Below are positions 15,771 through 36,900 of a stretch of DNA of 64,000 nt, piece after piece (positions within the stretch are counted from its first letter, which is position 1; every line of letters starts with the position of its first letter). The translations under genes and the position numbers were made by a program. The stretch spans positions 8,993 through 72,992 of the forward strand of contig CAJXYM010000007.1 in assembly GCA_913063045.1 (NCBI GenBank). Direction: 5' to 3'. The notes under the pieces were generated by a model. It made no database searches. It worked only from the letters and a program-made list of their open reading frames with translations, and was not told the origin of the DNA. Source of the stretch: an uncultured Flavobacteriales bacterium (GTDB lineage: Bacteria; Bacteroidota; Bacteroidia; Flavobacteriales; BACL11).

Positions 15771-17018
15771 ATGACGATACCTTTTAATAACAATAGACTG
15801 CTCCAACTCTTATTTGTTGTTTTTATTTCTTTCTCTAGCGTATTAGCTCAAGACACTAATGTTGTTATTGATTCTATTGCTGTTCAAAAGGGAGAGCAGA
15901 TTTTCAAAGCTAATTGTACTGCTTGTCATGTTATGGGAGATAAGAAGCTTATTGGTCCTGGTCTTTTAGGGGTTACTGATAGACGTACTAAAGAATGGTT
16001 AAAGAAATGGATTAATAGTTCATCAGATTTTATTGCTTCTGGTGATGCAGATGCCATAGCAATTTATGAAGAGTATAATAAAGTTGCAATGCCTTCATAT
16101 TATTTTGAGGACACTGATTATGAAGCTGTTTATGCATATCTTCAAAACCCTCCGCTTCCTAAAGTTATTGCTGATGCAGGAGACTTACTTGTTAGCGAAG
16201 ATGAAGGATTAAATATCTCTACTCAATTGATGTTCATTGCACTTTTTCTTCTTCTTTTAGTTTATGTGCTTACATCATTAAAAAACAAATTAAAAGATAG
16301 TTTAGCTCAAGATACCGAAACTATAACTCAGACGCTTGTTAATCAATTTAATCTTTTTATTAGTAACAATAGAAACATAGTTTTTGTTGCTTTTGCGTGC
16401 TTTATCGTTGTGGTTAAATTTGGTTATGATTCTCTCTCAAGCGTTGGTATATATACAAAATACCAACCTGAGCAACCAATTGCTTTTTCACACAAGGTGC
16501 ATGCTGGAGAAAATGGTGTTGATTGTAATTACTGTCATTCATCCGCTAGAAAAAGTAAGCATTCCGGAATACCTTCAGCTAATGTATGTATGAATTGTCA
16601 TACCTATATAAACGAGGGTACAATTACAGGTACTACTGAGATTTCTAAGATTTATGAAGCAGTTGGGTTTGATCCTGACTCTAGAACATATATTTCCGGT
16701 TATGAACAAAAACCTATTAAGTGGGTGCGTATTCATAATTTACCTGATTTAGCATATTTTAATCACTCTCAACATGTTGTCGCTGGAAAAGTTGAATGTA
16801 AAACTTGCCATGGCCCAATTGAAGAAATGGATGTCGTTTACCAACATGCAGAATTAACTATGGGATGGTGTATTGAATGTCATAGAACAACTGAAGTTGC
16901 TATGGAAGGTAATGAATATTATACTGAGCTTCATGAGCAATTAAAAGAAAAATATAAAGGTCAAAAGATAACTGTAGATAAGATTGGAGGAATTGAATGT
17001 GGAAAATGCCATTATTAA
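15771..17018 (+). CDS. actA: Alternative complex III multihaem cytochrome c subunit ActA with extra N-terminal cytochrome c domain
   Basis: Six CxxCH motifs (CTACH, CNYCH, CMNCH, CKTCH, CIECH, CGKCH). Signal peptide, two hydrophobic helices between the domains. First gene of the act operon. Confidence 0.85.
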   Translation: MTIPFNNNRLLQLLFVVFISFSSVLAQDTNVVIDSIAVQKGEQIFKANCTACHVMGDKKLIGPGLLGVTDRRTKEWLKKWINSSSDFIASGDADAIAIYEEYNKVAMPSYYFEDTDYEAVYAYLQNPPLPKVIADAGDLLVSEDEGLNISTQLMFIALFLLLLVYVLTSLKNKLKDSLAQDTETITQTLVNQFNLFISNNRNIVFVAFACFIVVVKFGYDSLSSVGIYTKYQPEQPIAFSHKVHAGENGVDCNYCHSSARKSKHSGIPSANVCMNCHTYINEGTITGTTEISKIYEAVGFDPDSRTYISGYEQKPIKWVRIHNLPDLAYFNHSQHVVAGKVECKTCHGPIEEMDVVYQHAELTMGWCIECHRTTEVAMEGNEYYTELHEQLKEKYKGQKITVDKIGGIECGKCHY

Positions 17019-17036
17019 TTAAGATTTATTAACTAG

Positions 17037-19997: not shown

Positions 19998-21382
19998 TGC
20001 ATAAAGAATCAGAAATTAGAGATCCGTTAATTCTTGGTAACAAAACTTATCATGATATAACAAGAGATATTGCTAGACCTGTTGAAGGAAAGGCAAATAA
20101 GTACTGGTGGATTTTATTTGGCTTGTCTGTCTTTTTGTTTTTATGGGGTGTAGGATGTATGGCGTATACAATAGGAACAGGTATTGGAGCTTGGGGTTTA
20201 AATAAAACAGTTAACTGGGCTTGGGATATTACTAATTTTGTTTGGTGGATTGGTATTGGACATGCCGGTACATTAATTTCTGCAGTTCTTCTATTATTCC
20301 GTCAAAAATGGAGGATGGCAATTAATAGATCCGCAGAGGCAATGACAATTTTTGGAGTTGTTCAAGCTGGCCTTTTTCCTTTAATTCACATGGGTAGACC
20401 TTGGTTAGCTTATTGGGTTTTTCCTTTTCCAAATGAATATGGTCCACTTTGGCAAAACTTTAATTCTCCTCTTTTATGGGATGTTTTTGCTATATCAACT
20501 TACCTTACTGTTTCGACTGTCTTTTGGTATATAGGTCTAATACCAGATTTTGCAATGATTAGAGATAGAATGAGTAAGACTATCAGTCCAATGAAAAAGA
20601 AACTATATACTTTACTTGCATTTGGATGGAGCGGTAGAGCGAAGCATTGGCAAAGATTTGAGGAAGTATCTCTTGTACTTGCAGGATTAGCAACTCCATT
20701 AGTTTTTTCAGTTCACTCTATTGTAAGTATGGACTTTGCTACTTCAATAATCCCTGGTTGGCATACAACAATATTTCCTCCATATTTTGTTCTTGGAGCA
20801 CTTTTTTCTGGATTTGCTATGGTTGAGACTTTACTAATTATTATGCGTAAGGTGGTTAATTTAGAAGCATATATTACAATAAAGCATATTGAATATATGA
20901 ATGTTATTATTCTTTTCACAGGATCTTTAGTTGGTACAGCATATATTACAGAGCTTTTTATGGCTTGGTATTCAGGGGTAGCTTTTGAGCAGTATGCATT
21001 TATAAATAGAGCAACTGGTCCTTACTGGTGGGCTTATATGGCTATGATGTCATGTAATGTAATTATTCCTCAATTATATTGGATTAAAAAAGTTAGAACA
21101 TCTTTTATCGCAACATTTATTCTATCAATCTTTGTAAATATAGGTATGTGGTTTGAGCGTTTTGTGATTATTGTCACATCATTACATAGAGATTTTCTTC
21201 CATCATCTTGGACTATGTTCTCTCCTACATTTATTGATATTGGTATATTCCTTGGGACAATTGGATTCTTTTTTACACTATTTTTGATGTACGCTAGAAC
21301 ATTCCCTGTTGTTGCGCAGGCAGAATTAAAAACAATTTTAAAATCTTCAGGGTCTGAATATAAAAATAAGAGTCATGAATAA
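19997..21382 (+). CDS. actC: Alternative complex III NrfD/PsrC-like membrane subunit ActC
   Basis: 461-aa polytopic membrane protein. TAATG overlap with actB. Position in the operon. Confidence 0.88.
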   Translation: MHKESEIRDPLILGNKTYHDITRDIARPVEGKANKYWWILFGLSVFLFLWGVGCMAYTIGTGIGAWGLNKTVNWAWDITNFVWWIGIGHAGTLISAVLLLFRQKWRMAINRSAEAMTIFGVVQAGLFPLIHMGRPWLAYWVFPFPNEYGPLWQNFNSPLLWDVFAISTYLTVSTVFWYIGLIPDFAMIRDRMSKTISPMKKKLYTLLAFGWSGRAKHWQRFEEVSLVLAGLATPLVFSVHSIVSMDFATSIIPGWHTTIFPPYFVLGALFSGFAMVETLLIIMRKVVNLEAYITIKHIEYMNVIILFTGSLVGTAYITELFMAWYSGVAFEQYAFINRATGPYWWAYMAMMSCNVIIPQLYWIKKVRTSFIATFILSIFVNIGMWFERFVIIVTSLHRDFLPSSWTMFSPTFIDIGIFLGTIGFFFTLFLMYARTFPVVAQAELKTILKSSGSEYKNKSHE

Positions 21383-21917
21383 AAAAGTATTATATGCTAT
21401 TTTCGATGATGAAGAGATTTTATTAAAATCTGTAAAAGAACTTAGATCTAAGGATATAGCAATTGAAGAGGTATATAGTCCTTTTCCAGTTCACGGTTTA
21501 GATCATGCACTTGGATTTAAAGAAACTAGAATGGCTATTACAGCATTTATATATGGATGTGTTGGTCTTGCATTTGGAGCATTATTAATTTACTATATTA
21601 TGATTTCTGGAGTTGGAAAAAGTTGGCCAATGAATATTGGTGGAAAACCAAATTGGACTTTTTATCATAATTTTCCAGCTTTTGTTCCTATAATGTTTGA
21701 ATGTACTGTTCTTTTCGCTGGTCACTTAATGGCATTAACTTATTTTTTTAGAAATCAATTGTACCCTGGAGCAACTACAGCTAGCCCTGACCCAAGAACT
21801 ACAGATGATAAGTTTTTAATGGAAATTGTTGTTGATGGTGATGATAAAGAAATGAGAAAACTCTTATCTGATACTGGAGCTTCAGAAATTAATGAAAAAG
21901 ATTCTAATGATAAATAG
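21375..21917 (+). CDS. actD: Alternative complex III subunit ActD (DUF3341-like)
   Basis: 180 aa with central hydrophobic helices. 8-nt overlap with actC. Called from operon position. Confidence 0.75.
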   Translation: MNKKVLYAIFDDEEILLKSVKELRSKDIAIEEVYSPFPVHGLDHALGFKETRMAITAFIYGCVGLAFGALLIYYIMISGVGKSWPMNIGGKPNWTFYHNFPAFVPIMFECTVLFAGHLMALTYFFRNQLYPGATTASPDPRTTDDKFLMEIVVDGDDKEMRKLLSDTGASEINEKDSNDK

Positions 21918-22482
21918 AGTAATTTTATTTTTTGCATTTATATTAATTGTTTCATCTTGTTCAAATCCTGGACCAGGATATGAATTTATGCCTAATATGT
22001 ATAGGTCTCCTTCTTTGGAAACTTATGGTCAGAACTCTGTCTTTGAAGATAGTTCAAATGCGCGTCTTCCTGTTAAAGGAACAATTGCTAGAAATTATCT
22101 ATCAACATTTTATTATGAAGGCTCTCTGCAAGGGTATTTAGAGGCAGGAGAAAATGCAGTTAACCCTTTTCTTAATGATGAAGTAAATATTGAGGAAGGT
22201 AAAAAATTATATTCCATGTTTTGTCAACACTGTCATGGAGAATTTGGTGCAGGCGGAGGGTCAATAACCCATCCTGTTTATTCTGCTATTCCTCATTATA
22301 ATGATTCTAAAATGTTAAGAAGAGCTAATGTTCCTATGAATCAGTTAACATCCGGACATATTTTTCATGCACTTACTTATGGATTAAATGCTATGGGGCC
22401 TCATTCATCACAGTTAAGTGAAGAAGAAAGATGGAAAATAACTATTTATGTACAAGAACTTCAAAAATATAATGCTGAATAA
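21892..22482 (+). CDS. actE: Alternative complex III monohaem cytochrome c lipoprotein ActE
   Basis: Lipobox VSSC and a single CQHCH motif. Overlaps the actD end; an alternative ATG lies at 21907. Confidence 0.8.
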   Translation: MKKILMINRVILFFAFILIVSSCSNPGPGYEFMPNMYRSPSLETYGQNSVFEDSSNARLPVKGTIARNYLSTFYYEGSLQGYLEAGENAVNPFLNDEVNIEEGKKLYSMFCQHCHGEFGAGGGSITHPVYSAIPHYNDSKMLRRANVPMNQLTSGHIFHALTYGLNAMGPHSSQLSEEERWKITIYVQELQKYNAE

Positions 22483-22493
22483 ATTTATTTATA

Positions 22494-23684
22494 ATGTATA
22501 AAATTTCTAAATCCTCTTTTATATTCTCAATTAGCTTAATTGTAATAGGTTTATTTTCTTCAATTTATGCATTCATGCATGATGCTCATGCTGCCTGGAC
22601 TAGCTTAATTTTTAACAATTATTTCTTTTTAGGTATTTCAATTTTTGCAGTTTTCTTTGTTGCTTTACAGCATGTTGCCGAGGCAGGTTGGTCTACTGTT
22701 ATTAAAAGAGTACCTGAAGCAATCATGACATTTTTGCCTTATGCCTGTGGTGTAATGATATTTATTGTTGTAGCAGCCTTACTTCATTGGAATCATATTT
22801 ACCATTGGTTACAGCCTGGGATAATGGATCCTAATGATTCTCATTATGATAAAATTATTGCTGGAAAAGAAGCATATCTTAATCCTATATTCTTTTTAGT
22901 TAGGTCTTTAATATATGTTACTGTATGGATTTATTGTGCTAAAAGATTACGTGATATTTCTCTTCAAGGAGATCTAGAGGGAGGTTTAGGTGCTAAATCA
23001 TACAACAAAGGAATTACTGTTTCTGCATGGTTTATTGTATTTTTTGCAGTCAGCTCTTCAATGGCTTCTTGGGATTGGATTATGTCTATTGATACGCATT
23101 GGTTCAGTACTTTATTTGGCTGGTATATTTTTTCAGAATGGGCTGCTATAGGCTTTACAACTATATTACTTTTTTGTTTATTGCTTAAAAGACAGGGTTA
23201 TCTTCAAGATTTAAATGATAGTATTATTCATGATCTAGGTAAATGGGTTTTTGCATTTTCAGTTGTCTGGACCTATATGTGGTTTTCTCAATTTATGTTA
23301 ATATGGTATGCTAATATTCCAGAAGAAGTAACTTATTTTATGGAAAGAATTGAATTACCAAACTATAGATTTTTATTCTGGTTTAGTGCAGGTCTTAATT
23401 TTGTTATTCCTACAATTGTTTTAATGAGTAGAGATGCTAAACGAAACTCAACAAATCTAATTATTGCATGCGTTGTTATATTAATTGGACATTGGTTAAA
23501 TTCATATCTCTTGTTTGCTCCCGGAACTCTTCATGAGCACGGTCACCTATCTTTTACAGATGTTGGTATGGGTCTAGGATTTACTGGAGTCTTTCTTCTA
23601 GTTGTGTTTAGAAGCTTAACAACTAGAAGTTTAGATATTAAGCACCACCCATTTTTAGAAGAGAGTAAACATCTTCATACATAA
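22494..23684 (+). CDS. actF: Alternative complex III membrane subunit ActF
   Basis: 396-aa polytopic, Trp-rich membrane protein. Last gene of the act operon. Confidence 0.78.
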   Translation: MYKISKSSFIFSISLIVIGLFSSIYAFMHDAHAAWTSLIFNNYFFLGISIFAVFFVALQHVAEAGWSTVIKRVPEAIMTFLPYACGVMIFIVVAALLHWNHIYHWLQPGIMDPNDSHYDKIIAGKEAYLNPIFFLVRSLIYVTVWIYCAKRLRDISLQGDLEGGLGAKSYNKGITVSAWFIVFFAVSSSMASWDWIMSIDTHWFSTLFGWYIFSEWAAIGFTTILLFCLLLKRQGYLQDLNDSIIHDLGKWVFAFSVVWTYMWFSQFMLIWYANIPEEVTYFMERIELPNYRFLFWFSAGLNFVIPTIVLMSRDAKRNSTNLIIACVVILIGHWLNSYLLFAPGTLHEHGHLSFTDVGMGLGFTGVFLLVVFRSLTTRSLDIKHHPFLEESKHLHT

Positions 23685-23755: not shown

Positions 23756-24778
23756 ATGAATGAGCAATTAAATCCTGAAGGAGAAAATCTAAGTAATGAA
23801 GAAGTAGAATTTGAACAAGTTTTACGTCCAAAACAATTTACAGATTTTAAAGGTCAAGATAAAATTGTTGATAATCTTGAGGTTTTTATTGAAGCAGCTA
23901 AACAAAGAGAAGAAGCATTAGATCATGTATTACTTCATGGTCCTCCTGGATTAGGAAAGACCACTTTGTCTTATATTATTGCTAATGAATTAGAAGTTGA
24001 TATTACTACAACCTCAGGGCCTGTTCTTGATAAGCCTGGTGATCTAGCTGGATTATTAACAAACCTTGAAACTAGAGACGTTCTTTTTATTGACGAAATT
24101 CATAGACTAAACCCAATTGTTGAAGAGTACCTTTATTCAGCGATGGAAGATTATCAGATTGATATCATGATTGAATCTGGACCTAATGCTAGAACAGTGC
24201 AAATAAAGCTCAATCCATTTACATTAATTGGAGCAACAACTCGATCTGGATTACTTACTTCTCCATTAAGAGCACGTTTTGGAATTAATTCTAGACTTGA
24301 ATATTACGGGGCAGAACTTTTGTCTGAGATTATAAATAGATCTTCAGCTATCTTGGATGTTAGTATTTCTAAAGATGCTGCAAACGAAATTGCTAGAAGA
24401 AGTAGAGGTACTCCTAGAATTGCTAATGCTCTTTTAAGAAGAGTAAGGGATTTTGCTCAAATAAAAGGAAATGGAAATATTGATAGTGAAATTACAAAAT
24501 ATTCTTTAAAGGCTTTAAATGTTGATGAAAATGGTTTAGATGAAATGGATAATAGGATTTTATCTGCTATCATTGATAAATTTAAAGGAGGTCCTGTGGG
24601 ACTTACAACAATTGCTACAGCAGTTGGAGAACAAGCCGGTACTATTGAAGAAGTTTATGAGCCATTTTTAATTAAAGAAGGTTATTTAATGCGTACACCT
24701 CGTGGAAGGCAAGCAACAGATTTAGCTTTTAAACATTTAGGTAGAGTAAAATCTCCCAATCAATCTGATCTATTTTAA
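23756..24778 (+). CDS. ruvB: Holliday junction branch migration ATPase RuvB
   Basis: Motifs [12 protein letters not shown], Walker [10 protein letters not shown], Walker B FIDEIHRL, and [16 protein letters not shown]. Confidence 0.97.
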
Positions 24779-24960
24779 GAAAAATTATCAAAAACATCTT
24801 TTATTATAAGTCTATAATGGGCAAAATATGTTAATGCCCATATTTTTAGATTAGCAAGATCTTTTTTATTTAACCATTTAGTAGATTTTGCTAATTCTTT
24901 TTTGAATAGCCTAGGGTCAAAGCTTACTTTGTTTAAAATTTTTTTGCAGAAATTGAGCAT
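24775..24960 (-). CDS. Small basic hypothetical protein (61 aa)
   Basis: ORF whose ATG overlaps the stop of the upstream 48-codon ORF (TAATG). Lys-rich and helical-looking. No recognisable family. Confidence 0.3.
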
Positions 24961-25106
24961 TAAGATTTAAATATTTTAATAATACAATATATAGTAACGC
25001 TGGATAACCCAATTAAAGTAATGAAAGATGCGTATGGCCATTCCATACTGTGAAATAATAGACCAATACTTGAAATTGCTATTGCAGTGTATTTAAGTTT
25101 TTCCAT
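24960..25106 (-). CDS. Small two-helix membrane protein (48 aa), below the ORF-track cutoff
   Basis: My own translation: MEKLKYTAIAISSIGLLFHSMEWPYASFITLIGLSSVTIYCIIKIFKS. Two hydrophobic helices. Starts 22 nt downstream of the ubiX stop. Confidence 0.3.
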   Translation of the reverse strand: MEKLKYTAIAISSIGLLFHSMEWPYASFITLIGLSSVTIYCIIKIFKS

Positions 25107-25128
25107 AACTTAAGAACGAAATAATAAA

Positions 25129-25701
25129 TTATTTATTGTTTTCTCCCCAACTGTATTTATCAAATTCAAATTCACATAAACTTAATGCTCTATCTATAAC
25201 TGTAGCAGCTAATTCTTCAAATGTTTTTGGTTTACTGTAGAATGATGGGGTAGCAGGACAAATTATTCCTCCTGCTTCAGTTATAGTTTTCATATTATTT
25301 ATATGTATAAGACTATATGGTGCTTCTCTAGCAATAATTATAAGTTTTCTTCTTTCTTTAAGTATTACATCAGCTGCTCTTGTGGTTAAGTCATTAGAAA
25401 TACCACTCGATATTCTTCCCATTGTTCCCATCGAGCAAGGACATATAATCATACAATTATAATTAGCAGATCCTGAGGCAAATGGCGCTTTAAAATCCAT
25501 TTTGTTGTAAAATTGAAATGGATACTTATCATAGTCTTTATTTTCTAATTCTGTTTCCCAGACATATTTAGCATTATCAGACATAAGAATTCCAACATTT
25601 TCAATCTGATCCTGTAATTTCATAAGTTTATCTAATAAAACTTTTGCGTATAAAGAGCCACTAGCTCCAGTAATTGCTATAATGATTTTATTTTTTTTCA
25701 T
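25129..25701 (-). CDS. ubiX: Flavin prenyltransferase UbiX
   Basis: FMN loop IIIAITGASGSLYA, motif PCSMGTMGRISSG. 190 aa. Confidence 0.92.
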   Translation of the reverse strand: MKKNKIIIAITGASGSLYAKVLLDKLMKLQDQIENVGILMSDNAKYVWETELENKDYDKYPFQFYNKMDFKAPFASGSANYNCMIICPCSMGTMGRISSGISNDLTTRAADVILKERRKLIIIAREAPYSLIHINNMKTITEAGGIICPATPSFYSKPKTFEELAATVIDRALSLCEFEFDKYSWGENNK

Positions 25702-26298
25702 TTATAATTGGTATTGTAATGAGAAGTTAATTCCGGTATTATACTTCCCTTTATTAAAGTAATATGATTGACCTGATTGGTGTTCAGCGATTGGTATTAT
25801 AGAGTTACTTAATCTAGTGTTTAAAATTACTTTTGGGTTTAAGTAATATGAAATCCCTATTAGTGCGCCTAAATCTAATTTGTTAAATTTTATTTGATTT
25901 TCTAATTCACCATATAGGTCAGAATAATACCCGTTAATTAAAGCTGCTATCTGTATACCTAGATCTATTTGTAAAATTGAAGACTGTTTGAGTTTTATGA
26001 TTAAAGGCACCTCTAAATAATTAAGATTAATATTTGCAATATCAGGGAATTTTTCTCTTTTTTGATTAACACTCCCTTTTTGTATAAAAGTCATCTCAAT
26101 CTGTATATTCATTTCGGAATTAAGATCTCTATTTACAAACCCCCCTAACAGTAAACCTGCTTTGTGAAAACCTGCAAGATTATCGCCAGAAACTTGTGTT
26201 GTACTTAGTCCTAAGATAGCTCCAGCATTAAAGTTTTGAGAATAACTATAATTGAAGGAGTATATTAATATTAATAAAATATTTAATAATTTTTTCAT
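25702..26298 (-). CDS. Small porin-family outer-membrane beta-barrel protein
   Basis: 198 aa. Signal peptide ending YSYSQ, alternating beta-strand pattern, C-terminal FSLQYQL. Confidence 0.55.
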   Translation of the reverse strand: MKKLLNILLILIYSFNYSYSQNFNAGAILGLSTTQVSGDNLAGFHKAGLLLGGFVNRDLNSEMNIQIEMTFIQKGSVNQKREKFPDIANINLNYLEVPLIIKLKQSSILQIDLGIQIAALINGYYSDLYGELENQIKFNKLDLGALIGISYYLNPKVILNTRLSNSIIPIAEHQSGQSYYFNKGKYNTGINFSLQYQL

Positions 26299-26299
26299 A

Positions 26300-27250
26300 T
26301 TATCTAAAGCTTACTCCTGCTCCAATTGAGAATACTGAATACTCACTAAGAGTATAGTTTGCTTGAAATGCTATTAATGCGATATTAAACCTAAGCCCAA
26401 TATTTGCTCTAAAGTCATTAAATCTTTGAAACTCCATATCTATAGGTAGTTGAATATCTAGATCGCCTAAATTAAAGTACTGAACAACATTTAAAGGACT
26501 AGTAGCAACATTAAAAGATGAAATTGAAGAACTATAACCAAGACTTGCAAAGCCTGTTAGCATTAAGATTTTTCTAGATGCAATTATATTAATGTTTGCA
26601 GCTTTAGTGTTAAGATTAACCTCTTGATTTAAAATAGTTTGTTTAGTGCTTAGATCCGTATATCCTGCTTGTAATGAAACGCTTAGAGGTATTGCATCTC
26701 CAATAATTGGAATCCACTGTAAAATATCATGTTTAAAACCAATACCCCATAAACTTACTTCTCCTTTACCAGCAAATCCTGCCTGAAAATTATAATTTGG
26801 AATATATCTAGCATTGATTTCAGTTTTTTTAATAAGCCCTATACCAATATTAGCAGTTGGAAGAGCTAATATAGATATTGAAGAAGCTTGATTAGGTAAT
26901 TTGAACTCATTGCCATTATACTCAACTAAAGCTCCTTCTCCCTTTCCTAATATTGTAGGAGTCTCTGTGTTAGATGAAAAATTTGATAAAGTATTAGGGT
27001 CAAAACTTTTCTTAGCTTTAGGAATGAACAAGGAATTTAAAGATATTGATACGTCAAAACCTCCAAACTTATGTGTTCTGGCAGAATTATACCAACCATT
27101 ATTAAGCATCGCTCCTAAACCTTCTCCCATCGGGGAGAGATATTCTTCTAAAAATAGTTTTGCATCATTTTGATTTTCTATTGTTACTTGAGAATATATA
27201 GATTGCTGACTAATTACTAAACTAAATATAATGGTTAGTAATCTAGACAT
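26300..27250 (-). CDS. Exported hypothetical protein, probable outer-membrane beta-barrel
   Basis: 316 aa. Signal peptide ending SIYSQ. C-terminal aromatic-rich strands ending GAGVSFR. Confidence 0.4.
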   Translation of the reverse strand: MSRLLTIIFSLVISQQSIYSQVTIENQNDAKLFLEEYLSPMGEGLGAMLNNGWYNSARTHKFGGFDVSISLNSLFIPKAKKSFDPNTLSNFSSNTETPTILGKGEGALVEYNGNEFKLPNQASSISILALPTANIGIGLIKKTEINARYIPNYNFQAGFAGKGEVSLWGIGFKHDILQWIPIIGDAIPLSVSLQAGYTDLSTKQTILNQEVNLNTKAANINIIASRKILMLTGFASLGYSSSISSFNVATSPLNVVQYFNLGDLDIQLPIDMEFQRFNDFRANIGLRFNIALIAFQANYTLSEYSVFSIGAGVSFR

Positions 27251-27255
27251 AAAAT

Positions 27256-28161
27256 TTAATTTGTAGCTAGAGAAGCATATTCAACTTGTAGAATCTCATA
27301 ATTTGAATTGTCATAGATATAGGCTAGAATAGAAATATTATTTTGATTCCATCCACCACTTTCTCCATTACCTTGAAAAAGCGTATTGTTAGAGTAATCA
27401 ATATTAAAGTTTTCAAGATCAGCTAAATTCACACTATAATTATGAGTATAGCTTTCGCCATTTGAAATATTTGTTGATAAGCTTACATCATCTCCCCATG
27501 CTGATGTAATTAGAGATCTCAGAACATGGTTATGAATGTAATTTTCATCTTCAATTACCCCGTCTTTTTGCCAGTTAGTAATTTCATTTTCAGTTAAGCA
27601 AACTACCAGCTTATAATCCCCCGAAATATCTTTAAGTGCATCTGTTGAGATGTCAATAATAGAATTATTTCCATCAAAGCTAGAATTTATATTTAACCCA
27701 AAAACAACCTCTTTATCCAACTCTTGTTGAACACTAGCAAGCCATTGACCTTTGTTTTTTCTATGATCACCGGGGTAGTCAATCCTGTTAATCATTCCTT
27801 TTGGCAGTCCAGCATCACTTATATTAAAAAAGTTATCTAATTCTTCTCCCCATTTAGTTCTAAAATCATAAGTAAATTTTGGTTGGCTTAATGGATACGG
27901 TCTTGCAAATGTAGATCCTACATGTAAGGCTAATCCTATAATTTGGCTTCCATATAAATCATGAATTGCTTCTAGCTCTCTAGCTGCATCTGGACAGTTC
28001 TGGCAAAGATGGCCAGTGAAGTCTTCAATTAAAATATTTTTAACATATTGATTTGAGTTTGTATCTACACCACCACCATTTCCAGTCATGTAAGGACCTT
28101 CGATAACTTCACAAGAACTTATTATTGATAGAAGAAATAGACTATATATTATTTTTTTCAT
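27256..28161 (-). CDS. Omp28-related lipoprotein with CxxC motif
   Basis: Lipobox IISSC. Motif EDFTGHLCQNCPDA. Alignable over about 250 aa with the N-terminal domain of the 30450..32360 protein. Confidence 0.55.
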   Translation of the reverse strand: MKKIIYSLFLLSIISSCEVIEGPYMTGNGGGVDTNSNQYVKNILIEDFTGHLCQNCPDAARELEAIHDLYGSQIIGLALHVGSTFARPYPLSQPKFTYDFRTKWGEELDNFFNISDAGLPKGMINRIDYPGDHRKNKGQWLASVQQELDKEVVFGLNINSSFDGNNSIIDISTDALKDISGDYKLVVCLTENEITNWQKDGVIEDENYIHNHVLRSLITSAWGDDVSLSTNISNGESYTHNYSVNLADLENFNIDYSNNTLFQGNGESGGWNQNNISILAYIYDNSNYEILQVEYASLATN

Positions 28162-28163
28162 AA

Positions 28164-29813
28164 TTAAAAACTTGATGTTATATTAAGATTAAGACCATTA
28201 GAAGAAGGAACTAATTTACATACTCCACCTACACAAAAGATTCCTTCTCTCTTTTTACCATAACCAATAGAAAAACGATTAGCACCTTTAAGAAAACCAA
28301 AATTAATATTAATGTAGTGTAGTCTTTTACTTTCATCATCATTTCCATAATTGTACATGTCTTGAATAGTAAAAAACCAATTTGGAGAAATAGTATATTC
28401 TGCAAGTGCCATAACCCAATCCCCTTCTTCTTTTTTAGAAGCTGTTTCTAGTTGTTTAGCTATTAATGTTTGTACTTCCATTCTTAATGTATGACCTTTT
28501 TTAATTTTATAGCTTAAATCTAATACTCCAATTGTTGAGTTTATTACACCATATTCTCCGGGAGTTTTTCCTTCAAGGAAATCCTTGTTGTATGTCTGAT
28601 TAGCAATTACAAAATTGTATCTAATTCTTTTATTTACTTTCTTGTTAACTTCTAAATTAATATCAGAATAATACAATTCTTCATTAAAACTTAATATCTC
28701 TGGAGTAAAATTAACATTATCATTTAATATTGAAGTTCCTCCTTTTAAACCATTAATTCTAGAAAAATTTAGATTTAATTTTGTTCCATACTTACCACCT
28801 AACAAAGAGCCTTTTTTGATTTTATAAAAGATATCAAGTTGCACTCCAAGCTCTCCCATTGCTTGTGTTGCACAAGGGTAAAGTGCTAAAAGTGTATAGG
28901 CGTGTGGCTTACTTAAAGTTGGTATGTAGTTCATGATATATGCTTTACCTATTCTATCTCTATCTGAAAGTAATAACATATTATCTGCTCTATGAATCTC
29001 TCCTGTAATACCAAAGCCTTTTTTAGAAAATGTTAAACTGCTTGTGAAAGCATTTCCGCTAGCATAATTCACAGCGTCTTCTTGTATTGAGTTTACGGGA
29101 TCATTAATTTTATAGGCATATTCTCCATAGTAGTTCCATCCTCCATTAATTATATTTAACCTTCCAGCATATAATCCAACATTTTGTGGGAGTTCAAATA
29201 CTGGGTTGTTTCTTTGTTGGTATCTACTGATAAAGCTTCCTCCAAAAATATATCTTGTTTTGCTTTGTAGTTCTAAAGTTTCATTTAAATCTATCTCACC
29301 ATCTATTCCTCTAAAAATACCATCTGCATATGTAAAGTAGGTTCTACTTTTTCCAATAAATGTTTTTAAGCTTATCCCTTTTAGAAGTTTGTACTTTAAT
29401 CTAATTCCATCCATTGCATTATCAATACCTAAACCTTTTTCTTCATAGCTTCTAAATATTAATCCGCTTCCAAATTGCTCATAGAAATTACCTGCCGTAA
29501 CTTCTAGTCCTTCAATAGAATAAGTAGCAAATCTATATGGAATACCATTACCTTTAAAGTCATCGTCATAGTCCAGTAAAGCATTTAAATAGCTTTCATA
29601 TCTAAGGCCTGCAGAAAAGTTGTTTTTTGTAAAAATGATATTCAAGAAACTATTATTTCTGATAACCTCATCAGCAGCAACAGCATTTATTGTTGCATCT
29701 TCAATATAGCTCTGCATATTAAGATCAAAATCTCCGTGTATCTCCCCATTATTTTGAGCAAAGATATTTATGCTTAAAAAAAATAGGATGAAACCTAATG
29801 AAATATTTTTCAT
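28164..29813 (-). CDS. Large outer-membrane beta-barrel protein, DUF6029-like
   Basis: 549 aa. Signal peptide ending NIFAQ, beta-strand periodicity throughout, terminal Phe (NITSSF), C-terminal FCVGGVCK motif. Confidence 0.5.
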   Translation of the reverse strand: MKNISLGFILFFLSINIFAQNNGEIHGDFDLNMQSYIEDATINAVAADEVIRNNSFLNIIFTKNNFSAGLRYESYLNALLDYDDDFKGNGIPYRFATYSIEGLEVTAGNFYEQFGSGLIFRSYEEKGLGIDNAMDGIRLKYKLLKGISLKTFIGKSRTYFTYADGIFRGIDGEIDLNETLELQSKTRYIFGGSFISRYQQRNNPVFELPQNVGLYAGRLNIINGGWNYYGEYAYKINDPVNSIQEDAVNYASGNAFTSSLTFSKKGFGITGEIHRADNMLLLSDRDRIGKAYIMNYIPTLSKPHAYTLLALYPCATQAMGELGVQLDIFYKIKKGSLLGGKYGTKLNLNFSRINGLKGGTSILNDNVNFTPEILSFNEELYYSDINLEVNKKVNKRIRYNFVIANQTYNKDFLEGKTPGEYGVINSTIGVLDLSYKIKKGHTLRMEVQTLIAKQLETASKKEEGDWVMALAEYTISPNWFFTIQDMYNYGNDDESKRLHYININFGFLKGANRFSIGYGKKREGIFCVGGVCKLVPSSNGLNLNITSSF

Positions 29814-29815
29814 AA

Positions 29816-30310
29816 TTATTTGCTTATTGCTTGAATTTGCTCATATAACTCATCCTCATCTCCATCAATATAACCTTTGTGTTGCCAAACTATTTTCCCT
29901 TCGCTGTTAATTAAGAATGTATGGGGCACGGATGATACTCCCAGAGCTCTTTTTAAATCGGAATTAGAATCAAGGTAAATTTCATATTCCCAGTCTGATG
30001 AGTTTACGTATGGTGCTACTTTGGACATTGATCTTGTATCATCAATAGAAATTGCAACTACTTTAACTCCAGTTTCATCTTGCCAATCTTCATATATTTC
30101 AGCAATATTATTTAATTCTTTTTTACAGGGTTTGCACCAAGTTGCCCAGAAACTGATGACTATTGGATTATTTTCATTCTCTAAATCCTGGATATTAAAT
30201 GTTGCACCATCCAGAGTTTTTACATCAATATTAGGCAGGCTCCTTTCTTGAGAAAATATTGTTCCTACATTTAAAAATGTTGCTATTAAAATAATTGATA
30301 ATTGTTTCAT
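29816..30310 (-). CDS. TlpA/ResA-like periplasmic thiol:disulfide oxidoreductase
   Basis: Signal peptide plus the thioredoxin-fold active site FWATWCKPCKKE. 164 aa. Confidence 0.85.
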   Translation of the reverse strand: MKQLSIILIATFLNVGTIFSQERSLPNIDVKTLDGATFNIQDLENENNPIVISFWATWCKPCKKELNNIAEIYEDWQDETGVKVVAISIDDTRSMSKVAPYVNSSDWEYEIYLDSNSDLKRALGVSSVPHTFLINSEGKIVWQHKGYIDGDEDELYEQIQAISK

Positions 30311-30333: not shown

Positions 30334-30341
30334 CAAATTTA
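30334..30341 (-). promoter_or_regulatory. Bacteroidota -7 promoter box (TAAATTTG on the minus strand) for the tlpA operon
   Basis: Exact TAnnTTTG, 23 nt upstream of the ATG at 30310, just downstream of two terminator hairpins. Confidence 0.35.
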
Positions 30342-30362
30342 CAAAACTTAAACAATAAAAAA

Positions 30363-30381
30363 AACCTGAAATAATCAGGTT
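30363..30381 (-). terminator. Rho-independent terminator hairpin (second of two)
   Basis: Stem aacctga / tcaggtt with a 5-nt loop. On the minus strand it is followed by a T-run (plus-strand A-run 30357-30364). Confidence 0.5.
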
Positions 30382-30401
30382 CTTAATACTTTAGTTTAAA
30401 T

Positions 30402-30435
30402 AAAAAAGCCTCGGCAGATTGCCGAGGCTTTTTTT
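30402..30435 (-). terminator. Rho-independent terminator, GC-rich hairpin with flanking A/T runs
   Basis: Stem gcctcggc (30408-30415) / gccgaggc (30421-30428), loop agatt, A6 before and T7 after. Lies 15 nt past the stop of the 30450 gene. Confidence 0.8.
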
Positions 30436-30449
30436 ATAATAAAGTTTAA

Positions 30450-32360
30450 TTATTTAGCTATTGTAACTTTTCTTTTAATTACTTCATCATTCGTAAAAAT
30501 GTTTACATAGTAAGAACCATTTGCTAAAGATGAGATATCCACTTTAGTTTTGTTTGAAGATGTAAGAACTAATTTTCCAAATATATCGAAAACCTCTAAG
30601 CTATTAAACACACCATCTACACTTAAGACATCTTGAGCAGGGTTTGGGTATAATTCAAATAGTTGTGTATTCTCTTCAACTGAAGTACTTGCAACGTAAC
30701 AAGGAGATGCTGGATCATTAACGTATGCATCAAAACAATCTTGTTCTGATCCATATGTTCCATTACCAGAACCTAAATCTGTACATCCAAATGGAGTGCA
30801 TTCCCATGCTGGTCCGCTTGCGCTTCCAGTTGAGAAATATTCTCCGAGCTCATTAAACGTTGAAAGTTGCTGTCCGGATAACGCTGTTATCGCTGTTCCT
30901 GCATTATCAGTTACATAAACTTCAGCTCCTGTTCCATAATTACAACACATTCCGTCTCCGTAAGTATCATAAAGTTTAAAAGCATAACATTCATTTGCAT
31001 TTACCATTACTGAAGCAGTGTAAGTTATATTTGATTGATATGTTCCTCCTTGACCACCAGAACCAATTACGTTTCCTCCTTCATCTACGATTTCCCATGA
31101 TGTTTCTGAACCGTAACCATCTGTAGTAATTTCTACAGAAATATTTCCTGCTGCAATACCACCTACAACCATATTATTTTGATCAAAATGAACAAAAGAT
31201 GTTGTCGTAGAATTATTGGTAGTATTTTGATCTACTTGACCATTAGGATTTGAAGCAGAGTAAGTTACATTATTTACTCCTTGAGGAGTAAATGTAGCTC
31301 CAGTAACTGTAAGTACTTCAGTTTCTCCAGGAAGCATATTTCCTGTCCAATTATACGTTGCTCCAGGAGTTCCGTTAATTGTGTAGTCAATATCTAAAGA
31401 AGTTAAATTAGTACTTCCAAAATTTCTAAATGTCATTTCTAGATCTGTTGAAGATCCACAAAGAACATCATTTGCTGATGAGCTTAAAACATTTGCATCA
31501 TACTGATTAGGGAATACAGGAGCAATAACTGATTGGTTACCAGTAATTATTTCTTGATTTCCTTCAGTAATAAAAGCAACTACATCCAAATCTATCAAAT
31601 CTAACATTACGCCATTAATATCATTTGGTGCTGTCCAAGTTAATGTCATTGGAACAAAAGTATTAGGAGTAATATTTGTTATTTCTTCTCCCCACTGTCC
31701 TGTCATTATGTGACGTAACATGTGTTGGTGGTTGTAAGTTGGATTCCATTGTCCAGGAATAATAGCTCCTGGATTGAAACTTGATGCTCCAGTTTGAGGA
31801 CCAGGTACATTGTTTTGCACAATTGCAACATTTAAAAAGTTTGAAGAGATACTTTGAGATCCAGTATAATAAACCTCAACATCTACTGTAACTAATCTAG
31901 TTGATAAATCAACACTTGCTTGAGTAGCAACATTTACAGGAGAAGACAGTAGAAGAGTTTGAGCTGTAGCAGTTGCCCAATTAGCTCTACCTAATGCAGT
32001 TGCTCCAGCTTGACCTTGTTCAAGACCCGGGAAGTTATGTCTATTTACTGTACCTGCAGGATATCCTGCAAGTCCTGATTGACCATCAATAGCAGCTCCA
32101 AGAGGAGTTCTAAAGTCTGGTTCGCCAGAGTTTGGAGTTGCATAACCTCCTTCGTGTATGTTAATAAGGAATACATTGTTTGGATTTGCATCGTGAAGAC
32201 CTTGTCCAATAACGTGACCATCAGGACAGAAGGTACAATGAATTCCAGTAAATTCTTCTAACACAACCTTTCTATTTTCAGGGGAAGTGCTAACAAAATT
32301 TTGTGCAAATGCAAATGTAGAGAACAAAGCAAAAGCAAAAGTTAGTAATTTTTTCATCAT
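30450..32360 (-). CDS. T9SS-secreted protein: Omp28-like CxxC domain, middle domains, type A C-terminal sorting domain
   Basis: Signal peptide MMKKLLTFAFALFSTFAFAQ, motif EEFTGIHCTFCPDGH, C-terminal LYPNPAQDVLSV...YYVNIF...KVTIAK (Por_Secre_tail-like). Start set at ATG 32360, because the track TTG at 32393 lies inside the -7 box. Confidence 0.65.
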   Translation of the reverse strand: MMKKLLTFAFALFSTFAFAQNFVSTSPENRKVVLEEFTGIHCTFCPDGHVIGQGLHDANPNNVFLINIHEGGYATPNSGEPDFRTPLGAAIDGQSGLAGYPAGTVNRHNFPGLEQGQAGATALGRANWATATAQTLLLSSPVNVATQASVDLSTRLVTVDVEVYYTGSQSISSNFLNVAIVQNNVPGPQTGASSFNPGAIIPGQWNPTYNHQHMLRHIMTGQWGEEITNITPNTFVPMTLTWTAPNDINGVMLDLIDLDVVAFITEGNQEIITGNQSVIAPVFPNQYDANVLSSSANDVLCGSSTDLEMTFRNFGSTNLTSLDIDYTINGTPGATYNWTGNMLPGETEVLTVTGATFTPQGVNNVTYSASNPNGQVDQNTTNNSTTTSFVHFDQNNMVVGGIAAGNISVEITTDGYGSETSWEIVDEGGNVIGSGGQGGTYQSNITYTASVMVNANECYAFKLYDTYGDGMCCNYGTGAEVYVTDNAGTAITALSGQQLSTFNELGEYFSTGSASGPAWECTPFGCTDLGSGNGTYGSEQDCFDAYVNDPASPCYVASTSVEENTQLFELYPNPAQDVLSVDGVFNSLEVFDIFGKLVLTSSNKTKVDISSLANGSYYVNIFTNDEVIKRKVTIAK

Positions 32361-32390
32361 TGATATTGTTTTTAATTTTATTATTGTCTT

Positions 32391-32398
32391 CAAATATA
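32391..32398 (-). promoter_or_regulatory. Bacteroidota -7 promoter box (TATATTTG on the minus strand)
   Basis: Exact TAnnTTTG, 30 nt upstream of the ATG at 32360. Confidence 0.35.
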
Positions 32399-32617: not shown

Positions 32618-33301
32618 ATGAAAAATTCTCTGTTATTAATACTTTTTCTCTCTAGTATTTTCTCATATTCTCAAAGCCTTGATGTTACGGGTAATATGAA
32701 TGTAAGTTCTAACCCATGTATGCAAGCTCATTCTACATTAACAATAAAAAATATATCAAATTATTCTTTAAATGTTATTTGTGAGAAAGTAATTATTGAT
32801 ACTACATTAGGGACTTCTAATTTTTTCTGTTGGGCAGCTAATTGTTACCCTTCTTCAACATACATCTCTCCAGGCACAAATACTATAGATGCAGGAGATT
32901 CTGATGCTACTGATTTTGGAGGGTATTATGATGCTTTTTGTGACCCTGCATCAGCTACAGTTCAATATTGTTTTTATCCTGATGATAACCCAAGTGATGC
33001 TACATGCGTTACAATTTTATATAATGGTAATTCCTCAAGTATTATTGAAAGTGATAGGGTGTTAAAATTAAATAGTTTTTATCCTAATCCTGCTGGACAA
33101 TCAACAAGTATTGAATATGTTACTTCAAAAGATTCGTATTTAAATATTGTAGATATTCTTGGTAACTCAATTAAAAAATATAATCTTGATTACTCGGGTA
33201 AATTAAATATAGACACTAGAGACTTTATAAAAGGAGTATATTTTGGTAATTTAATTGTTGATAATCAAATTATTTCTGTTAAAAAACTTATTATAAAATA
33301 G
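32618..33301 (+). CDS. Small cysteine-rich T9SS cargo protein
   Basis: Signal peptide ending FSYSQS. Seven Cys in a mature domain of about 120 aa. C-terminal FYPNPAGQSTSIEY...VYFGNL...KKLIIK sorting domain. Confidence 0.6.
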   Translation: MKNSLLLILFLSSIFSYSQSLDVTGNMNVSSNPCMQAHSTLTIKNISNYSLNVICEKVIIDTTLGTSNFFCWAANCYPSSTYISPGTNTIDAGDSDATDFGGYYDAFCDPASATVQYCFYPDDNPSDATCVTILYNGNSSSIIESDRVLKLNSFYPNPAGQSTSIEYVTSKDSYLNIVDILGNSIKKYNLDYSGKLNIDTRDFIKGVYFGNLIVDNQIISVKKLIIK

Positions 33302-33370: not shown

Positions 33371-33952
33371 ATGATTACACAAATTACAGGTAAATTATTA
33401 GAGAAGACACCAACTTATGTTGTGATAGAATGTAATGGTATGGGCTATCATATTAATATTTCATTACAAACTTTTTCTGCTATTAACAGTGAATTATGCA
33501 GACTTTATACTCATTTATCTGTTAAAGAGGATTCTCATACTCTTTATGGTTTTTTTGATGCTGCTGAAAGACATTTATTTCGTAATCTAATAAGTGTTTC
33601 TGGAGTTGGCCCCAGTACTGCTCAAGTAATTTTATCTACATATAATGCTAGTGAGATTGTTACTTATATCTCTACAGCAGATGTTGCAGCAATTCAGCAC
33701 GTTAAAGGAATTGGAGCAAAAACTGCACAAAGAATAATTATTGATTTAAAGGACAAGGTTGCAAAAGGACTTCCTAAATCTGATATTTTATTCAATATAG
33801 ACAATACAATTAAAACAGAAGCGTTATCTGCATTACTAGCTTTAGGGTTTTCTAAAAAAGCATCTGAGCAAAAAATTGATAAAGTCATGAAACTAAATCC
33901 TGATGTTGAGAGTGTTGAAGAGTTAGTAAAGACTGCTTTAAGTCAGATGTAA
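33371..33952 (+). CDS. ruvA: Holliday junction DNA helicase subunit RuvA
   Basis: N-terminus MITQITGKL and helix-hairpin-helix motifs LISVSGVGPSTAQ and VKGIGAKTAQRI. 193 aa. Confidence 0.95.
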   Translation: MITQITGKLLEKTPTYVVIECNGMGYHINISLQTFSAINSELCRLYTHLSVKEDSHTLYGFFDAAERHLFRNLISVSGVGPSTAQVILSTYNASEIVTYISTADVAAIQHVKGIGAKTAQRIIIDLKDKVAKGLPKSDILFNIDNTIKTEALSALLALGFSKKASEQKIDKVMKLNPDVESVEELVKTALSQM

Positions 33953-33977: not shown

Positions 33978-36900
33978 TTGAGCAATAAAATTCAATATTT
34001 TTTAACTGTAAGCTTTGTATTTGCATTACTTTTCAGTGTAGATGCAAATGGGTTTACTATGATAGATTCTACAGAGAATAACACTCTTCCTTATCCTTAC
34101 AGTCCAAATCAGTCTAGTGGTTTGTTTTTAAATACCCCCTCAAATCTTAATTTAAATATCAATTATGATCCTCAAAATAATTATTATTTATTTAATAAAA
34201 GGTTGGGAGAAATTAATCTTAATAGATCCCAAGTATTAGATTTTCAACAGTTTCAGGATTATAATCTAAAAAAATCTATCAATAATTATTGGAAGGATAG
34301 AACTAAACAACAGCTTTCAAGTAAAAATCAATCTTATGGAATGCCTAAGTTATATATTCCTGGCCAAGCTTTTGATAAGATATTTGGTGGTAATTCAGTA
34401 GATATTCGTCCTCAAGGTTCTGCTGAGCTAATTTTTGGAGTGAAAGTAAATCGATTAGACAATCCAAGTCTTCCTGTTGAAAGAAGAAGATCAACAACGT
34501 TTGATTTTCAAGAAAAAATACAAATGAATGTAATTGGTAAGATTGGTGATAAGCTTAAGCTTACTACTAATTTTAATACTGAAGCTACTTTTGATTTTGA
34601 GAATAATATGAAATTAGAGTACACGGGATATGAAGATGAAATTGTAAAGAAGATAGAAGTTGGTAATGTAAGTCTTCCACTAAATGGAACACTGATAACA
34701 GGAAGTCAGTCTTTGTTTGGTTTTAAAACTCAAATGCAATTTGGAAGAACAACTTTTACTGGAATACTCTCTCAGCAAAAGAGTAGTACCTCAGAAATTG
34801 AGGTTAGTGGAGGAGCCCAAACTTCTGAGTTTGATATTTATGCTGATCAATATGAAGCAAATAAACACTTTTTCTTAGCTCAATATTTCAAAGATAATTA
34901 TGATAATGCGCTTAGTGATTTGCCATTTGTTAATTCTCCTATTAATATTACTAGAGTTGAAGTCTGGATTACCAATAAGACAGGAACTACAAATGACACT
35001 AGAAATATTGTTTCTTTTCTTGACTTAGGGGAGACAACAGGTAATATTTACAATACTCAGTTTACATTATCAAATGGAGGTCCGTATCCTGATAATAATG
35101 CTGCTAATGATATGTTTGAATCCTTAACAACAAATTTTAGTGGGATTAGAGATATTAATAATGTTAATAATATTTTGTCTTCTCAATTGGGTATAGGCTT
35201 TTTAAATGGACAAGATTATGAGAAATTAGAGCGTGCCAGAAAATTAACTTCTCAAGAATATTCTATGCATCCACAGCTTGGATATATTTCTTTAAATCAA
35301 GCACTAAATAACGATGAGGTATTAGCAGTAGCATTTCAGTATACAGTTGGTAATAATACCTTTCAAGTTGGAGAATTTACATCTTCAGGACCTACCGCTC
35401 CACAGGCTTTAATTGTAAAACTTTTAAAGGGTACAAATTTCTCGCCAAAACTACCTAACTGGCATTTAATGATGAAAAATATATATGCATTGGGAGCCTA
35501 TCAAATGAGTAGTAATAACTTTATTCTTGATGTAGTTTATGAAAATACAGAAGAGTCTGGGGCTTTAACTAATTACATCCCAGAAGGAGTTATAGAAGGA
35601 GTTCCATTAATTCAGGTGGTAAATGTTGATCAGTTAAATCAACAAATGGATAGGCAATCGGACGGAGTTTTTGATTTTATTGAAGGTATAACTGCTAAAA
35701 CTGCTAATGGTAGAATTATCTTCCCTGTTCGTCAACCATTTGGAGAATATTTGAGGTCAAAATTTTCAGACCCAACTATTGCTGATAAATATGTTTATCA
35801 AGCTCTCTATGATTCTACACTTACCATTGCACAACAATATCCAGAATTAAATAAATTTAGAATAAAAGGAAGTTATCAAGGGGCTTCTGGCTCAGAAATA
35901 AGATTAACTGCTATGAACGTCCCAGAAGGCTCTGTAACTGTTACTGCTGGTTCTCAAAAGTTAGTTGAAAACCAAGATTATACAGTAGATTATACAATGG
36001 GAAGAGTTACTATTATAAACGAGGGTATATTAAATTCTGGTATTCCAATTAAAATATCTCTTGAAAATAATTCAATGTTTGGAATTCAAAATAAAACTTT
36101 AGTTGGTTTACATGCTGATTATGAAGTTAATAAAGATTTTATTTTAGGAGCAACAATGCTGAACTTAACAGAAAGACCTTTTACGCAAAAAATTAACACT
36201 GGTGAAGAACCTATTTCAAATACTATTTGGGGATTAGATGGAACTTATCAAACTGAAGCCCCATGGTTAACCAAAGCTGTTGATTTTTTACCTTTTATTG
36301 AAACAAAAGCAAAATCAAGAATTATTGCTAACGCTGAATTTGCTCAGCTAATTCCTGGTCATCATAGGGCTGTTGGGAAAAATGGGGTGTCATATATTGA
36401 TGATTTTGAGTCAAGTAGAACATCAATAGATATTAAAAATATGGGAGCCTGGAGAAGCTCTAGTATTCCTCAAGGTCAGGAAGACTTATTTGAGAATGCC
36501 TCTGCAAATAATGATCTTATTTCTGGATTTAAAAGAGCAAAATTATCGTGGTATACAATTGACCCTTTATTTTATAGAAATACCTCTATTACTCCACCTA
36601 ATATTAATAAAACTCTTAGCTTAGATAATGGAAGTGCAATTGCTCAACAATCTTATCATTATGTTAGAGAGGTTTTAGAAACAGAAGTTTTTCCTAATAA
36701 GGACCCTGATTTAGGAAGTCAAATAACCAATTTATCGGTTCTTGATCTTGCATATTATCCATCTGAAAGAGGTCCGAATAACTATACTGTTAATGGTTTG
36801 GAAGCTAGCGGAAGATTAATGAACCCCTCCAAAAACTGGGCAGGTATTATGCGAAAATTAGAGACTAATGACTTTGAGGCTGCAAATATTGAGTTCATTG

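Follow-up and report, generated by a model that had tools for sequence, protein, structure and literature searches.

Which genes of a tightly packed bacterial operon belong together by function, and which only by position? The question is raised by a locus in a 64,000-nucleotide stretch of DNA (the window; contig CAJXYM010000007.1 of assembly GCA_913063045.1) from an uncultured Flavobacteriales bacterium, in which genes for a TlpA-like thiol reductase, a large outer-membrane barrel of the DUF6029 family and an Omp28-like lipoprotein with a CxxC motif follow one another on the minus strand, with five further open reading frames (ORFs) behind them (24775–30310). An earlier note on this DNA had read all eight genes as one envelope module, in which TlpA, the lipoprotein or both might act on a Cys pair of the barrel, or on cargo passing through it. 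Comparison of related loci indicates a different composition: the five genes behind the lipoprotein gene are not part of the conserved unit, and a further member of the system, encoded upstream of tlpA (30450–32393), had fallen outside the range of that note. The conserved core consists of the reductase, the DUF6029 barrel, the HBP35/Omp28-type lipoprotein and this upstream paralogue of the lipoprotein, which is secreted by the T9SS (type IX secretion system). We propose, with a probability of roughly 0.65, that these proteins make up a module for thiol-redox chemistry at the outer membrane and cell surface, where the TlpA-type reductase is coupled to surface thioredoxins by the barrel. The source assembly is 1.37 Mb in size and 85% complete, with uncultured marine Flavobacteriales as the nearest relatives of the organism.

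Conservation of the gene neighbourhood across Bacteroidota

The surroundings of the barrel gene were compared in two sets of loci. The near set comprised the 80 closest related loci, with barrels 41–83% identical. The phylum sample, which was meant to avoid bias towards close relatives, consisted of 301 genomes drawn evenly across the phylum; 79 of these contained a DUF6029 match, and approximately 7 kb on each side of the match were fetched for 40 of them. In the near set, the lipoprotein gene was located 3′ of the barrel gene in 75 of the 78 loci that extended past the barrel, mostly within a few nucleotides, and a tlpA gene was located 5′ of the barrel in 70 of the 80 loci. In the phylum sample, an adjacent TlpA-like gene was detected in 35/40 loci, and an adjacent gene for a larger CxxC partner likewise in 35/40. 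This linkage persisted even where the barrel matched the DUF6029 profile only at an E-value of 1e-12, and the three Cys motifs (those of the reductase, barrel and partner) were retained there too. Clustering of the neighbouring ORFs (≤7 kb) of the 40 phylum-sample loci yielded only thioredoxin-fold proteins (40/40) and the barrel itself as recurrent families. No transporter, regulator or polysaccharide gene family recurred near the barrel within 7 kb in these 40 loci, and DsbD was encoded in one of them. The earlier proposal that tlpA, DUF6029 and Omp28-like genes constitute a real module is therefore borne out by a neighbourhood conserved across Bacteroidota, with all three Cys motifs kept far beyond this genome.

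The DUF6029 barrel and its cysteine hairpin

The barrel gene (28164–29813, minus strand) is present as a single copy in the source genome, and its product matches the DUF6029 family (PF19494) over the full length, with residues 1–549 aligned to profile positions 1–538 (E 3e-175; 584 bits against a cut-off of 27). The protein has a signal peptide and a C-terminus (...ITSSF) with a final aromatic Phe, and the AlphaFold2 model contains 24 long strands, with a mean predicted local distance difference test score (pLDDT) of 86 and a predicted template-modelling score (pTM) of 0.80. By sequence, no relative of the barrel was found among solved structures. The fold search returned generic large barrels only (FimD, PapC, MtrB, LptD and TonB-dependent receptors; template-modelling (TM) scores of 0.3–0.47), and no specific functional analogy can therefore be drawn from it.

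The Cys pair noted earlier near the C-terminus was placed by coordinate arithmetic at exactly the positions given before, C527 at 28233–28235 and C532 at 28218–28220. The codons for C527-V-G-G-V-C532 (28218–28235, minus strand) lie within a two-strand hairpin of the model (residues 524–528 and 531–535), and according to the predicted secondary structure the whole element, G-I-F-C527-V-G-G-V-C532-K-L-V (524–535), sits between barrel strands 23 and 24. Since long loops alternate with short turns in the model, the hairpin was assigned as the last extracellular loop. A C-x-G-G-x-C hairpin forms a cross-strand disulfide of a strained type, which is often redox-labile. Every intact barrel of the near set carries the sequence ...C-x-G-G-x-C-[RK]-x-V-P..., and in the phylum sample a C-x4-C element precedes the last strand in all 39 intact barrels, supplying the sole cysteines of the protein in 30 of them. 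The barrel of the window has one additional, non-conserved cysteine (C314). High-level conservation was also observed for the loop at residues 111–133.

The Omp28/HBP35-type lipoprotein and its secreted counterparts

The lipoprotein gene (27256–28161, minus strand) encodes a protein that matches Pfam Omp28 (PF11551) with 96.5 bits against a cut-off of 34.9; its score against the NCBIfam subfamily model NF033782 was 134 bits (cut-off 150). The AlphaFold2 model (pLDDT 92) shows a thioredoxin fold followed by an immunoglobulin (Ig)-like sandwich, and its best Foldseek match is HBP35 (5y1a; E 4.6e-12, TM 0.61/0.59 over 285 columns). A profile built from 42 orthologues of the lipoprotein matched the Omp28 structure 2r2c (E 6e-30), HBP35 5y1a (E 4e-5) and thioredoxins. 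On the strength of these profiles and the model, the Omp28-like protein is identified as a predicted thioredoxin-fold protein of the HBP35 type. Its lipobox (...IISS-C17) is followed by an active site, C53-Q-N-C56-P57, in the thioredoxin domain. Eight residues are invariant in the 42 aligned orthologues, namely, C17, C53, C56, P57, H80, D99, P120 and E191. The tether that follows the lipid-bearing Cys is acidic and unusually conserved (C-D-x-[IV]-[ED]-x-P-[YF]), with Pro in 56 of 57 sequences. Judged from these alignments, the conservation of the barrel Cys pair and of the CxxCP motif of the lipoprotein is far beyond chance. The Pfam scan detected no T9SS sorting domain on the lipoprotein.

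Such a domain is present on the paralogue encoded upstream of tlpA, a protein of 647 aa (minus strand) that matches Omp28 with 55 bits, Por_Secre_tail with 44 bits (both Pfam) and TIGR04183 with 38 bits. Its N-terminal thioredoxin/Omp28 region, which contains a CTFC motif, is joined through additional middle domains to the Por_Secre_tail at the C-terminus, and translation probably begins at the ATG near 32360 (MMKKLL). The middle region contains, at residues ~450–505, a Cys-rich motif, YGDGMCCNYGTG, in a part without a family match. The sorting domain is of type A, and the same genome encodes the T9SS translocon SprA (sprA, 33978–41141). A paralogue of the lipoprotein was found 5′ of tlpA in many related loci.

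Among the 47 large CxxC partners of the phylum sample, 38 match Omp28 and 21 carry a T9SS sorting domain (20 Por_Secre_tail and one CHU_C), while the two cysteines of the CxxC motif are the sole invariant columns across all 47. In several distant lineages, a T9SS-exported CxxC protein is encoded at the position of the lipoprotein instead. These sorting domains place the partners that carry them at the cell surface and are the strongest evidence that the partners work there.

Several observations on the partners and on T9SS genes stand apart from the above. In one distant family of the phylum sample, the partners of the barrel (L152:8369-9722 and L153:8480-9836) belong to the Redoxin type and have, like DsbA, a CPHC motif, and that of L153 carries a T9SS sorting domain; an oxidizing rather than reducing partner would change how the module is to be read in this lineage. 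At the start of contig C8, the source genome has one more Omp28-like CxxC gene, its third, in truncated form. Just past the gene for the HBP35-like cargo protein lie ruvA (33371–33952) and sprA (2387 aa), both on the plus strand, and between the cargo gene and ruvA lies a plus-strand gene (32618–33301) whose small product (227 aa) combines several cysteines with a T9SS sorting domain. Relatives of this product were detected in 42 fetched loci, of which some may be accounted for by the shared sorting domain alone. In 27 of the fetched loci, among them three phylum-sample loci (L124, L130 and L132), the sequence for the SprA N-terminus lies no further than 7 kb from the barrel gene, a proximity that may be functional or may merely be inherited gene order. 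SprA was found in all 79 DUF6029-bearing genomes, compared with 237 of the 301 genomes overall; this co-occurrence is uninformative because the 64 SprA-less genomes belong nearly all to one family and thus amount to approximately one independent lineage.

The TlpA/ResA-type reductase

The reductase gene (29816–30310, minus strand) encodes a protein with a WCKPC active site and a signal peptide without a lipobox, which matches the Pfam families AhpC-TSA (E 1e-22) and Redoxin (E 3e-18). Its scores lie far below the NCBIfam equivalog cut-offs for ResA (93 bits versus 170), TlpA (48 versus 230) and DsbE (53 versus 123). The nearest solved structure is 2m72, an uncharacterized thioredoxin-like protein (E 2.6e-44), with ResA far behind (E 5e-19), indicating that the reductase represents a distinct group within the TlpA/ResA/CcmG type. 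The sequence WATWCxPC is retained among the reductases that adjoin the barrel. Two further TlpA-like CxxC paralogues are encoded in the source genome, on contigs C8 and C16.

TlpA-type proteins are held in the reduced state by DsbD or CcdA and reduce specific extracytoplasmic clients. The reductase of the module shares with TlpA, ResA and CcmG the secreted thioredoxin fold of the AhpC-TSA/Redoxin type and the CxPC active site, but differs from them in its conserved partners, which are an outer-membrane barrel and surface thioredoxins rather than cytochromes c, Sco or CoxB.

A proposed thiol-redox module and its alternatives

We know of no explanation for how surface thioredoxin-like proteins, such as HBP35, are kept reduced outside the periplasm, and the module described here is a concrete, testable candidate for this task. 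In the proposed scheme, the periplasmic TlpA/ResA-type reductase would receive reducing power from DsbD, and the barrel would physically pair with thioredoxin-like proteins, linking them to the periplasmic reductase; the CxxC proteins at the surface could thereby be held in the reduced state or brought to it. Of the conceivable routes, thiol–disulfide exchange via the hairpin of the barrel itself is favoured. That the relay runs specifically through this hairpin is put forward tentatively, and we hold it to be doubtful. We likewise regard it as possible, with the odds against it, that DUF6029 is the outer-membrane counterpart of DsbD, with its hairpin dipping into the lumen of the 24-strand barrel and passing electrons from TlpA to surface thioredoxins of the HBP35/Omp28 type.

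Several points weigh against a surface thiol-redox module of this kind. In the model, the Cys hairpin faces the extracellular side, which would place it beyond the simple reach of a periplasmic TlpA in the assembled barrel. The cross-strand disulfide of the hairpin could also be purely structural. For the lipoprotein form, the case for surface exposure consists of the acidic tether motif and of analogy with the T9SS-secreted paralogues. Five of the 40 phylum-sample loci are without an adjacent TlpA-like gene, and five are without an adjacent partner. Finally, no match to DsbD_TM was detected in the source assembly, which is incomplete as noted above; full-length DsbD was found in 19 of 21 relatives, two of them of the same genus as the source.

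Two other readings keep the barrel and its thioredoxin-like partners together and assign them a different task. The barrel could be a translocon or dock for the thioredoxin-like proteins, a platform for export or anchoring in which TlpA would keep their cysteines reduced, and the proteins export-competent, in the periplasm, while the hairpin would act as a gate or latch instead of carrying electrons. The tight coupling of the barrel and lipoprotein genes fits such a platform, the conserved tether of the lipoprotein could serve as its docking or export signal, and we know of no established route by which lipoproteins of Bacteroidota reach the surface, which also counts in its favour. In Porphyromonas gingivalis, PorA has been reported with T9SS-independent surface transport (PMC7712824, PMC12152298). 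The top fold matches of the barrel are 24-strand usher pores; however, their TM-scores are low (0.33–0.47) and express a likeness to large barrels generally. Moreover, nearly half of the partners already have a T9SS route, and an invariant Cys pair on the outer face would be needless for an export pore, so that we consider this reading unlikely. Alternatively, the barrel could be an uptake channel with a redox-active cap, in the manner of SusCD or BtuBG but without TonB, where a surface thioredoxin-like protein captures and reduces a disulfide-bonded, metal or haem substrate, which would then enter via the barrel and be handled or protected by TlpA in the periplasm. HBP35 indeed binds hemin, and cells short of hemin need it to grow (PMC2907840); the invariant H80, D99 and E191 of the lipoprotein, beside the CxxC motif, could form a ligand site; and uptake pairs of a barrel and a lipoprotein are common in Bacteroidota, with BtuB–BtuG among the fold matches. 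The DUF6029 barrel has neither a TonB box nor a plug domain, though, no inner-membrane transporter or regulator recurs in its neighbourhood, and the lifestyles of the organisms range from streamlined marine to large genomes with no substrate genes in common. An uptake function appears distinctly unlikely on this balance.

Two further readings change the boundaries of the system. There may be no dedicated system at all: the disulfide of the hairpin would be a structural staple, TlpA a general reductase acting, for example, in cytochrome c maturation for alternative complex III (ACIII), and the genes neighbours by descent. Cross-strand disulfides often do no more than stabilize loops, and an ACIII operon with several cytochromes c directly adjoins the locus (15771–23684). 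Across the phylum, however, the reductase tracks the barrel and not ACIII; in conjunction with the other TlpA-like paralogues of the genome, this linkage led us to reject cytochrome c maturation for ACIII as the task of this TlpA. The tight group formed by the reductases of the module, set apart from ResA by the 2m72 match, and the joint retention of the three Cys motifs down to DUF6029 profile matches of E ~1e-12 also speak for a dedicated function, and we regard its absence as very unlikely. Conversely, all eight genes of the operon, with ubiX and the small ORFs among them, could be one system, in which, for instance, prenylated flavin or quinone chemistry feeds the redox proteins. That the small barrel gene and ubiX are 0 nt apart would agree with this, as would the finding that 33 of the 80 near loci, some with barrels only ~45% identical, have ubiX after the module. 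Against it, ubiX is linked in none of the 40 phylum-sample loci, the operons of the close relatives L001, L005 and L007 lack the gene, and UbiX is a cytoplasmic protein whose partner, UbiD, has its gene elsewhere; on these grounds, ubiX was rejected as a member of the system. The loci with ubiX also keep ruvB and sprA nearby, pointing to inherited gene order, and a single eight-gene system is extremely improbable.

The module preferred here, with thiol-redox chemistry at the outer membrane and cell surface, would be a form of extracytoplasmic thiol-redox pathway, and a categorically new one if the relay is real. In that case, Bacteroidota would have a protein-thiol electron route across the outer membrane, and electron transport by the barrel, if it indeed occurs, would add a new principle to what outer membranes do. 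Should the barrel carry no electrons, the module still defines a function for two large families, DUF6029 and Omp28. The module is kept across much of Bacteroidota, even in a streamlined marine genome of ~1.4 Mb.

Comparison with known systems

HBP35 of P. gingivalis is located at the cell surface and has a thioredoxin activity that requires its CxxC motif (PMC2907840). The lipoprotein resembles it (5y1a) in that a CxxCP-bearing thioredoxin domain comes first and an Ig-like sandwich second, and the T9SS sorting domain is common to HBP35 and the 647-aa protein encoded upstream. The lipoprotein differs from HBP35 in being anchored by lipid and not through a T9SS domain, and the identity between the two is ~16%. 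HBP35 is not known to have been connected before with a barrel or with a dedicated reductase.

In the same organism, PG2173 is listed as Omp28, a thioredoxin domain is given for PG2175, and PG_2174 appears as an uncharacterized protein of vesicles (PMC13744359, PMC4335976). The consecutive numbering of PG2173–PG2175, together with the matches to the solved structures 2r2c and 2m72, suggests that the same trio is present in P. gingivalis, and this oral pathogen thus probably has the module too. Here we take PG2174 to be the DUF6029 barrel and 2m72 to be PG2175. None of these three proteins has an assigned function. The earlier note knew of no function assigned to this combination of genes, and no description of the module was found in the literature searched.

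The likeness to two well-known electron conduits is one of logic only. In common with DsbD, the thiol relay of the inner membrane, and MtrCAB, an electron conduit sheathed by a barrel, the module would have, without homology to either, a membrane protein that carries redox equivalents across a membrane between soluble redox partners on its two sides. MtrB is among the generic barrel matches listed above; in contrast to these systems, the DUF6029 barrel contains a single Cys pair and is free of haem, and transfer across the outer membrane would be a property that we infer for it. The literature searched contained a single paper on DUF6029, in which HHpred linked the family to Wzi-like barrels and a role in polysaccharide secretion was suggested (PMC9603273). 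Both types are large outer-membrane barrels. Wzi-like polysaccharide export was rejected as a function of the module, because the barrel had no Wzi Pfam match, Wzi was not among the top 50 fold matches and no polysaccharide export genes recurred in the neighbourhood.

Other genes of the operon and upstream signals

Re-reading of the sequence reproduced the layout reported earlier in all its parts, that is, eight tightly packed ORFs on the minus strand at 24775–30310 with their TAATG overlap, as well as the Cys codons, the box of the promoter and the hairpins. Behind the lipoprotein gene follow, all on the minus strand, the genes for a DUF6588 protein (26300–27250), a small barrel of the OMP_b-brl_2 family (25702–26298) and UbiX (25129–25701), and then two small ORFs, orf48 (24960–25106) and orf61 (24775–24960). 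The successive gaps from tlpA to orf48 are 2, 2, 5, 1, 0 and 22 nt, and orf48 and orf61 overlap by 1 nt (TAATG). The transcription unit is predicted from this spacing, and the DUF6588, small barrel, ubiX, orf48 and orf61 genes would accordingly be co-transcribed with the core as a matter of lineage-specific gene order.

The exported DUF6588 protein (PF20230, E 2e-73) is encoded only in the closest loci (L001–L029), and a structure search found no solved relative of it. For the small barrel (PF13568, 43.9 bits versus 27), a gene 3′ of that for the lipoprotein was present in 44 of the 80 near loci and in three of the 40 phylum-sample loci. UbiX, a flavin prenyltransferase, matches TIGR00421 with 167 bits (cut-off 108.9), and the gene for its partner UbiD is located on another contig (C11). 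In the three close relatives whose operon lacks ubiX, orf61 directly follows the small barrel gene. Near loci in which ubiX is linked also keep ruvA and sprA on the opposite side, and the linkage of ubiX is therefore interpreted as inherited gene order in a compact genome rather than as function. The earlier note had left this linkage unexplained; lineage synteny and operon compaction account for it. As judged from sequence, ubiX is a cytoplasmic housekeeping gene that shares the predicted transcription unit by position only and lies outside the system, whereby a false lead is removed.

The product of orf48 is predicted to be a small membrane protein with two helices; tblastn gave five matches, all in close relatives, with 58–65% identity. 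The orf61 product is a small basic protein encoded between ubiX and ruvB, with relatives in 27 loci (45–74% identity). The differences at the first, second and third codon positions number 68/38/105 for orf48 and 394/262/635 for orf61, and both thus look like real genes, since the differences fall mainly at third positions. No Pfam or NCBIfam family was matched by either. Although orf61 and ruvB follow in many near loci, they are linked in none of the 40 phylum-sample loci.

Upstream of tlpA, a terminator-like hairpin with a 9-bp GC-rich stem and a T-tract was identified by inspection of the minus strand 3′ of the gene for the T9SS-secreted paralogue (~30402–30429; AGCCTCGGC-AATCT-GCCGAGGCT-TTTTT), and a terminator scan detected a second on the same strand at 30360–30384. 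These are followed by TAAATTTG, a −7 box of the Bacteroidota type (30334–30341, minus strand), 23 nt 5′ of the tlpA ATG. TAnnTTTG boxes occur in the AT-rich DNA of the window at a frequency of 0.88 per kb per strand, and the TAAATTTG box is for this reason weak evidence of a promoter. The seven such boxes within the operon are close to the number expected by chance.

The adjoining ACIII operon, on the plus strand, looks complete, with genes for a multihaem cytochrome c, a molybdopterin/Fe-S subunit, an NrfD-like protein, ActD and a cytochrome c, as well as for a 396-aa membrane protein that had no Pfam match. The ruvB gene (23756–24778, plus strand) converges on orf61 with a 4-nt overlap, leaving no space for a terminator, and is separated from ruvA by ~8.6 kb, with the minus-strand module between them.

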